From the NCBI RefSeq assembly GCF_003334815.1, contig NZ_QOWO01000031.1: DNA of 45,531 nt. The stretch is one strand, 5' to 3'. The notes under the pieces were generated by a model. It worked only from the letters and a program-made list of their open reading frames with translations. It searched no databases and was not told the DNA's origin. A program made the position numbers and the translations under genes. This document shows, piece by piece, positions 27,183 to 43,876 of the stretch (its first letter is position 1; each line of letters begins with the position of its first letter). The stretch is from Escherichia coli. Its GTDB lineage: Bacteria; Pseudomonadota; Gammaproteobacteria; Enterobacterales; Enterobacteriaceae.

Positions 27183-28700
<1,518 letters not shown>

Positions 28701-28836
28701 TTAATTCCACTGTGAAAACGAATATTTATTTTGCGTTCCCGTTTGTTTTATTTTTGTTAACATTTAATATAATTATTATTAACCTCGTGGACGCGTTAAT
28801 GGCTAACTCATAATGGGTATTCAATAAGCTGTATTC

Positions 28837-28852
28837 TGTGATTGGTATCACA
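28837..28852. promoter_or_regulatory. CRP binding site (perfect consensus palindrome) in the cai/fix divergent control region
   Basis: TGTGA-ttggta-TCACA: both half-sites match the CRP consensus exactly with 6-bp spacing, about 140 bp upstream of the caiT start. Confidence 0.75.
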
Positions 28853-28947
28853 TTTTTGTTTCGGGTGAATAGAGGGCGTTTTTTCGTTAATTTTGATTAA
28901 TAATCAGTTTGTTATGCTCTATTGTGAGTAAAAAAATAACATCTGAC

Positions 28948-28982
28948 TTTCAATATTGGTGATCCATAAAACAATATTGAAA
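28948..28982. promoter_or_regulatory. CaiF-type operator: 11-bp inverted-repeat half-sites separated by 13 bp
   Basis: TTTCAATATTG-(13 bp)-CAATATTGAAA, a perfect inverted repeat; this geometry matches what has been described for CaiF sites. Confidence 0.65.
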
Positions 28983-29004
28983 ATTTCTTTTTGCTACGCC
29001 GTGT

Positions 29005-29039
29005 TTTCAATATTGGTGAGGAACTTAACAATATTGAAA
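29005..29039. promoter_or_regulatory. Second CaiF-type operator (same 11-13-11 inverted repeat)
   Basis: TTTCAATATTG-(13 bp)-CAATATTGAAA, identical half-sites to the first operator, 57 bp downstream of it. Confidence 0.65.
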
Positions 29040-29063
29040 GTTGGATTTATCTGCGTGTGACAT

Positions 29064-29078
29064 TTTCAATATTGGTGA
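29064..29078. promoter_or_regulatory. Third copy of the TTTCAATATTGGTGA 15-mer (half-site only, no inverted partner)
   Basis: Exact third occurrence of the 15-mer shared by the two operators above, about 90 bp upstream of the fixA start; no matching CAATATTGAAA partner downstream. Confidence 0.4.
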
Positions 29079-29169
29079 TTAAAGTTTTATTTCCAAATTA
29101 AAGGGCGTGATATCTGTAATTAACACCACCGATATGAACGACGTTTCCTTCATGATTTCTGGAGATGCA

Positions 29170-29940
29170 ATGAAGATTATTACTTGCTATAAGTGCGTGC
29201 CTGATGAACAGGATATTGCGGTCAATAATGCTGATGGTTCATTAGACTTCAGCAAAGCCGATGCCAAAATAAGCCAATACGATCTCAACGCTATTGAAGC
29301 GGCTTGCCAGCTAAAGCAACAGGCAGCAGAGGCGCAGGTGACAGCCTTAAGTGTGGGCGGTAAAGCCCTGACCAACGCCAAAGGGCGTAAAGATGTGTTA
29401 TCGCGCGGCCCGGATGAACTGATTGTGGTAATTGATGACCAGTTCGAGCAGGCACTGCCGCAACAAACGGCGAGCGCACTGGCTGCAGCCGCCCAGAAAG
29501 CAGGCTTTGATTTGATCCTCTGTGGCGATGGTTCTTCCGACCTTTATGCCCAGCAGGTTGGTTTGCTGGTAGGCGAAATCCTCAATATTCCGGCAGTTAA
29601 CGGCGTCAGCAAAATTATCTCCCTGACTGCAGATACCCTCACCGTTGAGCGCGAACTGGAAGATGAAACCGAAACCTTAAGCATTCCGCTGCCTGCGGTT
29701 GTTGCTGTTTCCACTGATATCAATTCCCCACAAATTCCTTCGATGAAAGCCATTCTCGGCGCGGCGAAAAAGCCCGTCCAGGTATGGTCGGCGGCGGATA
29801 TTGGTTTTAACGCAGAGGCAGCCTGGTCAGAACAACAGGTTGCCGCGCCGAAACAGCGCGAACGTCAGCGCATCGTGATTGAAGGCGACGGCGAAGAACA
29901 GATCGCCGCATTTGCTGAAAATCTTCGCAAAGTCATTTAA
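29170..29940 (+). CDS. fixA: Electron-transfer flavoprotein beta-subunit homologue
   Basis: 256-aa [22 protein letters not shown]… (ETF beta family). ATG at 29170 is preceded by GGAGA; the tabulated 29107 start is an upstream extension. Confidence 0.93.
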
Positions 29941-41521: not shown

Positions 41522-43876
41522 TCACAAAGTGTTTTGATACGGCAGAATGTTCGAACGCAGCATCTCTTGCGTACCCAGACCGTAGTTGGAGCTCAGGCCG
41601 CGAAGTTCGATGTTAAAGCCGATTGCGTTGTCATATACCGCATGTTGTTTATCGTTATCCCAACCGTTCAGCTTCCGCTCGTAACCGACGCGAATTGCAT
41701 AGCAGCAGGAGCTGTATTGCACACCTAACATAGAGTCGGCTTGCTTGTTAGCATTGGTGTCGTAGTAGTAGGCCCCAACAATGGACCAACGATCGGCAAT
41801 TGGCCAGCTGGCGACAGCACCTACCTGCGAAATACCATTCTTATATTGCTCAGCAGTGGAATAGTACTTAGGCAGCGTAGCCTGAATATATTCCGGGCTG
41901 GCGTAACGGTAATTCAGCTGTACCAGACGGTCTTCATCCCGACGGTATTCAATGCTGGAGTTACTGGTCGCTACGTTATCCAGACGTGTATCGTACTGAA
42001 TCCCGCCACGCAATCCCCAACGCTCGGAGATACGCCAGTAAGTATCGCCTGCCCACACCAGTGAACCCGTTTTGTCGTCATTCTCCCATGTTATGTTGTC
42101 ATCGCCAGTGCGAGACTCCGTGAAATAGTAGATTTGACCAACGGAAATATTAAAACGTTCAACGGCAGCATCATCATATATGCGAGATGTGACACCGGTC
42201 GTCACCTGGTTAGCGGAGGCAATACGGTCAAGACCGCCGTAAGTCCGGTCCCGGAACAGGCCAGAGTAGTCAGATTGCAGCAGAGACGAGTCGTAGTTAT
42301 AGATGTCGCTCTGATCGCGATACGGCACGTACAAATACTGCGCGCGCGGTTCCAGCGTTTGGGTATAACCCGGAGCCAGCATTTCCATATCGCGTTCAAA
42401 GACCATTTTGCCGTCAACTTTGAATTGCGGCATTACGCGGTTAACGGATTCGTCCAGCTTGGTCGTGTTTCTGGAGTTATACCAGTCAAGATTGGTTTGC
42501 TGATAATGGGTTGCCAGCAACTTCGCTTCGGTATTGATGCTGCCCCAGTTATTAGAGAGCGGCAAATTGATGGTCGGTTCCAGGTGAACACGGGTTGCTT
42601 CAGGCATGTCGTCTCTGGTGTTAACAAAGTGCACTGCCTGGCCGTAAATACGCGTATCAAACGGACCAACATCATTCTGGTAGTAATTAACGTCTAACTG
42701 CGGCTCTGCCGAGTAGCTACTGGTGTTCTGTTCGCTGAAAACCTGGAACTGCTTGGTTGAAACGGTGGCATTGAAGTTTTGCACCGCATAGCCAACGCTG
42801 AATTTTTGCGTTGCGTAGCCGTCAGTACTGGAACCGTACTTGTTATCGAAATCATTGAAGTAGCTAGGATCGCTGACCTTGGTGTAGTCGACGTTGAAAC
42901 GCCACACCTGATCCATGACCCCGGAGTGGTTCCAGTAGAATAACCAACGACGTGAACTGTCATCGTTCGGGTGTTCATCTTCATAGACTTTATCTGAAGG
43001 CAGATAGTCCAGTTCCATCAAGCCAGCGCCCGCCTGGGAGAGGTAGCGGAATTCGTTCTCCCACATGATGTTGCCACGACGATGCATATAATGCGGCGTG
43101 ATGGTGGCATCCATATTTGGCGCGATGTTCCAGTAATATGGCAGGTAGAACTCAAAGTAGTTGGTGGTGGTGTACTTGGCGTTCGGGATCAAGAAACCAG
43201 AGCGACGTTTGTCACCCACCGGCAACTGCAAATAGGGGCTATAAAAGATCGGTACCGGACCCACCTTAAAGCGGGCGTTCCAGATCTCCGCAACTTGTTC
43301 TTCGCGGTCATGAATAATTTCGCTACCTACCACGCTCCAGGTGTCAGAACCCGGCAGACAGGAGGTAAAGCTACCGTTATCCAGAATGGTATAGCGGTTT
43401 TCGCCACGTTGTTTCATCAGGTCCGCTTTACCGCGACCCTGGCGACCCACCATCTGGTAATCACCTTCCCAGACGTTGGTATCTTTGGTGTTCAGATTCG
43501 CCCAGCCTTTCGGCCCTTTGAGGATCACCTGGTTATCGTCGTAATGGACATTACCGAGCGCATCAACGGTACGTACCGGCTCCGGTTGTCCTGGTGCCTC
43601 TTTTTGATGGAGCTGCACTTCGTCGGCCTGCAGACGGCTGTTACCCTGCATGATATCCACGCTGCCAGTAAACACGGCGTCATCCGGGTAGTCCCCTTTC
43701 GCGTGGTCAGCATTGATAGTCACGGGTAAGTCATTGGTATCGCCCTGTACCAGAGGACGGTCATAGCTTGGCACGCCCAACATGCACTGTGAGGCGAGGT
43801 CGGCTGCCAGTCCCTGTTGACTATAAAGGGCGGTGGCAATCATGGTGGCCAGGAGAGTGGGGATACGTTTTTTCAT
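41522..43876 (-). CDS. lptD: LPS-assembly outer-membrane protein LptD
   Basis: 784-aa ORF with signal peptide ([24 protein letters not shown]) and a large aromatic-rich beta-barrel; conserved position upstream of surA. Confidence 0.95.

Follow-up and report, generated by a model that had tools for sequence, protein, structure and literature searches.

Two binding sites of the regulator CaiF, F1 and F2, are described between caiT and fixA, and their sequence is given as 5'-TTTCAATATTG-N13-CAATATTGAAA-3' in PMC12083890 and PMC3680233, both of which cite Buchet et al. 1999. Binding of CaiF at F1 and F2 is reported in secondary sources such as PMC12083890, which is also the only open-access text that carries the half-site sequence in the context of CaiF. 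RegulonDB and EcoCyc re-curated the CaiF sites in 2010 using shorter motifs, and accessible papers model the DNA target of the protein only as the F1/F2 inverted repeats. CaiF serves as the sensor in current L-carnitine biosensors and in production strains relying on the fix promoter (PMC12083890, PMC3680233). Its homology to GrlA has been noted (PMC9979310), and the reported target of GrlA is the 18-bp spacer that separates the -35 and -10 elements of LEE1 P1 (PMC10877973, citing Islam et al. 2011; promoter sequence in PMC3130263). CaiF belongs to the Pfam family CaiF_GrlA (PF07180), and it matches GrlA (PDB 4KT5, chain C) with E = 0.001 in the N-terminal HTH region.

Repeat layout of the caiT-fixA control region

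Segment 28690-29180 of the window (the whole stretch of DNA analysed, 45,531 nucleotides) is the caiT-fixA intergenic region. It was matched in 5392 of 5426 complete E. coli genomes and is 99.4% identical to the segment in K-12 MG1655, which bears out the placement of the repeats in the cai/fix control region by the preliminary description of this DNA. The genes and repeats are as follows.

20943..21338, plus strand: caiF, regulator gene, 131 aa, Pfam CaiF_GrlA (PF07180)
28697, minus strand: start of caiT
28698-29169: caiT-fixA intergenic region of the E. coli chromosome
28948..28982: CaiF operator F1, TTTCAATATTG-N13-CAATATTGAAA, known, identical to the published F1/F2 consensus
29005..29039: CaiF operator F2, TTTCAATATTG-N13-CAATATTGAAA, known, identical to the published F1/F2 consensus
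29064..29078, plus strand: third, unpaired copy TTTCAATATTGGTGA, with the 14-mer 29065-29078 as its conserved core; equivalent to K-12 positions 42297-42311; proposed promoter-embedded CaiF site
29170: start of fixA

The 15-mer TTTCAATATTGGTGA occurs exactly at 28948-28962, 29005-29019 and 29064-29078, always on the plus strand and with start-to-start spacings of 57 bp and then 59 bp. When up to two mismatches are allowed, the 45.5-kb window holds four matches against 0.17 expected, a number reached by 0 of 100 shuffles. The perfect inverted partner CAATATTGAAA follows copies 1 and 2 after exactly 13 bp (28972-28982 and 29029-29039). Each 11-mer contains the 8-bp palindrome CAATATTG, and the centres of the two cores in an operator lie 21 bp, or two helical turns, from each other. 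At the position expected for a partner of the third copy, 29088-29098, the sequence reads TATTTCCAAAT and does not match, and CAATATTGAAA is likewise absent from that position in all 56 related loci described below. The three exact copies, the perfect 11-13-11 pairs formed by the first two and the unpaired state of the third, all listed in the preliminary description, were thus recovered directly from the sequence, the last also in the related loci. Because the sequence of copies 1 and 2 with their partners is the same as that reported for F1 and F2 (PMC12083890, PMC3680233, citing Buchet et al. 1999), their earlier reading as CaiF operators stands; they are the published operators and hence old knowledge, and the added value of the present analysis lies only in the third copy.

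Two further repeat-like features of the caiF neighbourhood were seen. Within the caiF coding sequence, TTCGATATTGAA at 21042-21053 differs from the CaiF 10-mer at a single position on either strand; this is probably a chance match, since the window holds 11 one-mismatch matches against 4.2 expected. Between caiF and caiE, at 21286-21640, overlapping open reading frames with near-identical repeated peptides are typical of tandem extragenic repeats of the REP/BIME type.

The genes caiT and fixA are under CRP control through separate CRP molecules (PMC3105977). A scan with the core TGTGA-N6-TCACA, in which matches at 7 or more of the 10 core positions were listed, gave the following sites in the cai promoter and the operator spacers.

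28837..28852: perfect CRP core TGTGA-N6-TCACA of the cai promoter, 10/10, conserved in Salmonella and Citrobacter
28958..28973: CRP-like core GGTGA-N6-AAACA in the F1 spacer, 7/10, centre 28965.5
29015..29030: CRP-like core GGTGA-N6-TAACA in the F2 spacer, 8/10, centre 29022.5

Buchet and co-workers reportedly placed CRP sites, in 1999, at -41.5 for cai and at -69.5 and -126.5 for fix, with the two start sites 289 bp apart. We take cai +1 to be 28803 and fix +1 to be 29092, and these four numbers then fit the three CRP cores. The centre of the core in the F2 spacer would thereby lie at -69.5 from fix +1 and that of the core in the F1 spacer at -126.5, presumably CRP site 3. We are fairly confident of these positions since they are mutually consistent with the three cores found.

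The four extra bases, GTGA, that turn the 11-mer into a 15-mer fit a CRP-like half-site in the F1 and F2 spacers. GTGA is kept in 43 of 46 F2 left halves compared with only 23 of 38 F1 left halves, where TTGA is common, a pattern that fits a CRP constraint strongest at the promoter-proximal operator. Neither this overlap of the extension with CRP sites nor the core-promoter position of the third copy was part of the preliminary description. As a CRP site the third copy itself was rejected, since its GGTGA-N6-TTTTA scores only 6/10, below the 7/10 threshold, and would centre on the -10 region. A separate match, TGTGA-N6-CAATA at 29056-29071, scores 7/10 and overlaps the -35-like hexamer of the fixA promoter and the start of the third copy; its TGTGA varies except in the Escherichia/Salmonella/Citrobacter clade.

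Position of the third copy relative to the predicted fixA promoter

The only promoter-like match upstream of fixA on its strand is the predicted promoter GTGACA-17-TAAAGT, and the third copy fills its 17-bp spacer. The elements surrounding the copy are listed here.

29057..29062, plus strand: -35-like hexamer GTGACA of the fixA promoter, invariant in the Escherichia/Salmonella/Citrobacter clade
29080..29085, plus strand: -10 candidate A, TAAAGT, predicting +1 near 29092
29085..29090, plus strand: -10 candidate B, TTTTAT, with TATTAT or TTTAAT in other genera, predicting +1 near 29097
29107..29122, plus strand: conserved leader block GTGATATCTGTAATTA, with an rTG at fixed +43/+44 from the start of the 15-mer that opens a short hydrophobic ORF

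With +1 at about 29092 the third copy occupies -28 to -14, and with TTTTAT as the -10 element it occupies -33 to -19 and overlaps the -35 position; it is thus predicted to lie inside the core promoter in either register. The choice between the two -10 candidates depends on the evidence considered. Conservation favours TTTTAT: across 22 genera the hexamer of this type carries 1.77 bits per position at a fixed distance of 6 nt after the 15-mer, and the TAAAGT register reads TAnnGT in the Enterobacteriaceae close to E. coli and CTAGGT or CCAGGT elsewhere. The published geometry of the fix start site, as we assume it, fits candidate A and favours TAAAGT. The Cappable-seq supplements, searched for an independent fixA start site, contain no entry near the locus. 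The -35-like hexamer is weakly conserved overall (0.58 bits per position), with GTAACA- or GTGACA-like hexamers at equal register in Edwardsiella and Limnobaculum. At equal register the spacer measures 17 bp in E. coli, Providencia and Aeromonas, and not the suboptimal 18-20 bp.

Other readings of the sequence around the repeats were also considered. A sigma-54 promoter reading of the TGGTGA sequence was rejected by eye because GC is absent at the -12 position. A comparable half-site in the spacer of the cai promoter, TTATTGAATA at about 28817-28826, was rejected because it is not conserved in Salmonella and Citrobacter, and Rfam gave no match at E <= 1 in 28650-29300. Conservation continues past the 15-mer into 29085-29122 of the window, as a module of the form [15-mer]-N6-[TTTTAT/TATTAT/TTTAAT]-N16-[rTG]. 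The ORFs opened by the rTG encode peptides such as MVFLL.., MLILYY.., MIIIY* and VISVIN.. and extend for 4-16 codons or run into the fixA frame. They have no clear Shine-Dalgarno sequence upstream, and their conservation looks nucleotide-level (rTGrTAyyTsTAwT). Some annotations begin FixA at the GTG at 29107, giving a protein of 277 aa.

Conservation of the third copy and variation in operator number

Related loci were gathered via homologues of FixA and CaiF and by a CaiT-based scan of species-representative genomes, and were oriented, with fixA located by tblastn. The half-site scan covered the caiT-fixA regions of 57 Enterobacterales and Aeromonas loci, with operators called at no more than two mismatches. 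An unpaired nTTCAATATTGGTGA adjoins fixA in 56 of these 57 loci, covering 22 genera. The 10-mer of the third site is exact in 51 of the 56 loci and is followed by GTGA in 55 of them; the corresponding counts of exact 10-mers are 39/46 for the left and 29/46 for the right half of F2, and 34/38 for the left and 36/38 for the right half of F1. When one sequence from each of the 22 genera was aligned without gaps on the site, the 15-mer had 1.82 bits per position, and its positions 2-15 had 1.92. The surrounding sequence is close to saturation, with 0.36 bits per position upstream, 0.58 in the -35-like hexamer and 0.89 over the first six bases downstream. Of about 5390 E. coli genomes carrying the region, 5314 match 29057-29086 at 29 or more of its 30 bases. 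Across these 22 genera, and judged by sequence comparison, the third copy is the most constrained and conserved cis-element of the intergenic region.

The site lies 103-109 bp before the fixA ATG in 16 genera (Escherichia, Salmonella, Citrobacter, Pseudocitrobacter, Phytobacter, Intestinirhabdus, Yokenella, Pluralibacter, Atlantibacter, Trabulsiella, Cedecea, Proteus, Providencia, Aeromonas and two more Enterobacteriaceae), with two species outliers at -92 and -139. In Edwardsiella, Hafnia, Serratia sp. H1w, Leminorella, Limnobaculum and Budvicia it is found farther upstream, 264-349 bp from the ATG.

Genera differ in how many full upstream operators they have, from 0 to 3. Proteus has three 11-13-11 operators at a strict 59-bp period in addition to the unpaired site, and Escherichia, Salmonella, Citrobacter and close relatives have two. 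Two upstream positions are also present in Providencia, where the right half of the promoter-proximal one, the site at the F2 position, is degenerate. A single operator is found in Yokenella, Pluralibacter, Atlantibacter, Trabulsiella, Cedecea and two more Enterobacteriaceae, and at up to two mismatches no full operator was detected in Edwardsiella, Hafnia, Serratia sp. H1w, Leminorella, Limnobaculum or Budvicia. In Budvicia the single site and the downstream hexamer are present as a 27-bp tandem duplicate. Counted over the 56 related loci, F1 is found in 38 and an upstream site at the F2 position in 46, where its distance to the third copy is 58-61 bp and mostly 59 bp. The sequences of the copies vary independently: in Atlantibacter the third site reads CTTCAGTATTG and F2 reads TTTCAATATTG, and the opposite arrangement is seen in Providencia. 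Because the copies in these two genera do not co-vary, the comparison indicates that each copy is held by purifying selection for one motif and not by gene conversion.

The distant genera have a common block, TTATAATGAAATTTG...AATAATCCGTGATCTTAATCAAA, adjoining caiT about 400-440 bp before fixA. Within it, GTGAT-N4-ATCAA resembles an FNR/CRP site and is followed by the cai -10 element, which suggests, from sequence likeness, an FNR-type site in place of the perfect CRP site of E. coli. For Edwardsiella the presence of caiF is reported (PMC2764856), and a tblastn search for caiF beside the distant loci gave nothing significant within the short flanks.

Exceptions to this conservation are rare, and some unusual alleles were also observed. 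In Entomohabitans the promoter site is interrupted (TTCAgcgacgtcgGGTGAgTTTTTAT). E. coli P276M (NZ_CP044293.1) has a rearrangement with a net deletion of about 16 bp, equivalent to window positions ~29026-29070, which removes the right half of F2, the GTGACA hexamer and most of the third half-site; this allele is possibly a natural loss of regulation. Between the cai CRP site and F1, at ~28826-28939, two deeply diverged haplotypes occur within E. coli, and the flanks of this block, including all CaiF sites, are nearly identical within the species; recombination or balancing selection could account for this pattern. Close CaiT homologues beyond the Enterobacterales show 67-74% identity. Shewanella and Ferrimonas have no CaiF-type motif between caiT and fixA, which are 0.6-1.9 kb apart, and regulation there must therefore differ. 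In Campylobacter, Desulfovibrio and Malaciobacter no adjacent fixA was found within the fetched flank, and their loci lie outside the motif scan.

Proposed role of the third copy, alternatives and comparison with known systems

Rather than a product of decay, the third copy is probably a functioning regulator site. We propose, with a probability of about 0.55, that it is a functional CaiF site embedded in the fix promoter, the primary cis-element of that promoter by conservation, and that it acts on RNA polymerase; it may also be the ancestral cis-element of the promoter. The observed basis of the proposal consists of the position of the copy, its identity with the left halves of F1 and F2, its deep and independent conservation, its rigid spacing to the -10-like hexamer and the kinship of CaiF with GrlA. 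That CaiF is the protein bound there, and that binding activates, are both points that we infer. In the proposed mechanism one CaiF unit at the third copy would act directly on the RNA polymerase-promoter complex, much as the homologue GrlA is reported to do at LEE1 P1 from a position between -35 and -10. The upstream 11-13-11 operators with their CRP-like spacer sites would be accessory, raising local CaiF occupancy and bringing in CRP. On the best-supported reading, given the reported activation of LEE1 P1 by GrlA from the spacer, CaiF would likewise work inside the core promoter. The 15 bases shared exactly with the left halves of both published operators count in favour of a CaiF site. Against such a site counts that CaiF binding is described in the accessible literature only at F1 and F2, with no description of the third copy, and that CaiF alone may not occupy a lone half-site. 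The near-invariant GGTGA tail also falls outside the 11-bp half-site model, with right halves lacking the tail and distal left halves tolerating TTGA. In the register of the assumed start site the 17-bp spacer is optimal, and a spacer correction of the GrlA or MerR type is not obviously needed; moreover, comparison by eye of the LEE1 and fix spacers gave no convincing sequence similarity in either register. A protein bound in the spacer could equally repress.

A broader version of the proposed CaiF site can be put forward only tentatively. It would make the single promoter-embedded 14-mer TTCAATATTGGTGA the essential and possibly ancestral CaiF target, have the CaiF/GrlA class of regulators activate inside the core promoter, and treat F1 and F2 as lineage-specific accessory amplifiers, in 0-3 copies, around CRP sites. 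If this is true, both divergent operons of the Hafniaceae and Budviciaceae are served by a single site of this kind and an FNR/CRP site some 140 bp from it.

Four alternatives were ranked, here taken in descending order of likelihood. The copy might be conserved for a reason other than CaiF, either as an intrinsic RNA polymerase/sigma-70 element (a spacer element or a substitute for the -35) or as a site for another factor, with its likeness to the F1 and F2 left halves arising by duplication. This explanation, which we regard as unlikely but deserving of some weight, would account for the lack of a reported CaiF footprint at the third copy in accessible sources and for the presence of the GGTGA tail and the rigidly spaced TTTTAT outside the published CaiF half-site, and sigma-70 is known to sense spacer sequence (PMC3130263). 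However, promoter spacers normally vary freely, whereas here 14 consecutive positions are near-invariant in 22 genera, and the same 10-mer is independently kept at up to six other positions per locus; the 6/10 CRP match and the failed sigma-54 reading also count against it. The copy could also be a weak auxiliary half-site, active only via CaiF bound at F2, with which it forms an everted pair (29029-39/29064-74, 24 bp apart), through oligomerisation or DNA bending. The narrow spacing to F2 in 46 loci and the continuation of the 57-59-bp period of the operator array are consistent with such cooperation, and a lone half-site is expected to bind a dimeric protein only weakly. Yet the third site is better conserved than F2, and the core-to-core distances to F2 of 38 and 59 bp correspond to 3.6 and 5.6 turns and place the cores on opposite helical faces. 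Because the site stands alone in six genera, which keep it without any F2, cooperation cannot be its sole role, and on this evidence dependence on F2 is a doubtful explanation.

Repression through the third copy is improbable. As a negative or dual (MerR-like) operator, the site would let CaiF hold fixA off when inducer is absent or cap expression at high CaiF, and a protein sitting between -35 and -10 often blocks RNA polymerase; repression of flhDC has been reported for GrlA as well (PMC9979310). CaiF, however, is described only as an activator of cai and fix, and the promoters of the distant genera have poor -35 hexamers and look activator-dependent. The preliminary description had also offered a decayed operator, which was not borne out. 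Three copies in a periodic array of about 58 bp could suggest a remnant of a third operator or neutral debris of tandem duplication, and CCAAATTAAAG at 29093-29103 bears a faint likeness to a right half-site carrying two deletions. As a decayed right half-site this sequence was rejected, since the likeness does not extend beyond the Escherichia/Salmonella/Citrobacter clade. No element of the region is more conserved than the third copy, which lacks a partner in all 56 loci and is present even where no full operator is detectable; because it is kept while the operator number varies from 0 to 3, we exclude decay and regard a relic as hardly credible.

Compared with F1 and F2, the third copy has an identical half-site with the same four following bases, in left-half orientation and in the same intergenic region. 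It carries the half-site TTTCAATATTG between the divergent caiT and fixA genes, and CaiF is encoded in the same genome. Unlike F1 and F2, it has no inverted partner in any genus and lies inside the core promoter instead of upstream of it, and on the failure of the inverted-partner test it is placed outside the F1/F2 operator class. We therefore describe it, on the present sequence comparisons, as a probable deeply conserved, promoter-embedded variant of the CaiF site, for which the preliminary description, right about F1 and F2, was too cautious and partly wrong. If the embedded site is what links CaiF to RNA polymerase, it should become the target of promoter engineering and of the design of minimal promoters, and the cai-fix region becomes a clear case of an operator array expanding and contracting (0-3 units) around a fixed core site.

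The CRP class I/II sites of cai and fix resemble the repeats in that the CRP-like cores have GGTGA from copies 1 and 2 as their left half, whereas the third copy, with its low match and a centre on the -10 region, cannot credibly be read as a CRP site. MerR-family activators, which have their operator in a 19-20-bp promoter spacer, likewise place an activator site in the spacer of an activator-dependent promoter, but they belong to an unrelated fold and family and use full dyads in over-long spacers, in contrast to the single site with CAATATTG in the 17-bp spacer of fixA. The GrlA target at LEE1 P1 of EHEC/EPEC is located between -35 and -10, as the third copy is in the predicted promoter GTGACA-17-TAAAGT, and is used by a regulator of the same Pfam family (PF07180). 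It differs in its suboptimal 18-bp spacer, compared with 17 bp at fixA in the register of the assumed start site, and the two spacers do not resemble each other. Unlike the CaiF system, GrlA has no upstream 11-13-11 operators or CRP partner, and it is under the control of GrlR; the signal for CaiF is a carnitine-derived CoA ester (PMC12083890). By analogy, and with the spacer of fixA lacking the suboptimal length, the third copy would work most like the GrlA spacer target, with which its position provisionally agrees. If this is true, the poorly understood mechanism of the CaiF/GrlA family could be unified, with both regulators acting inside the core promoter.
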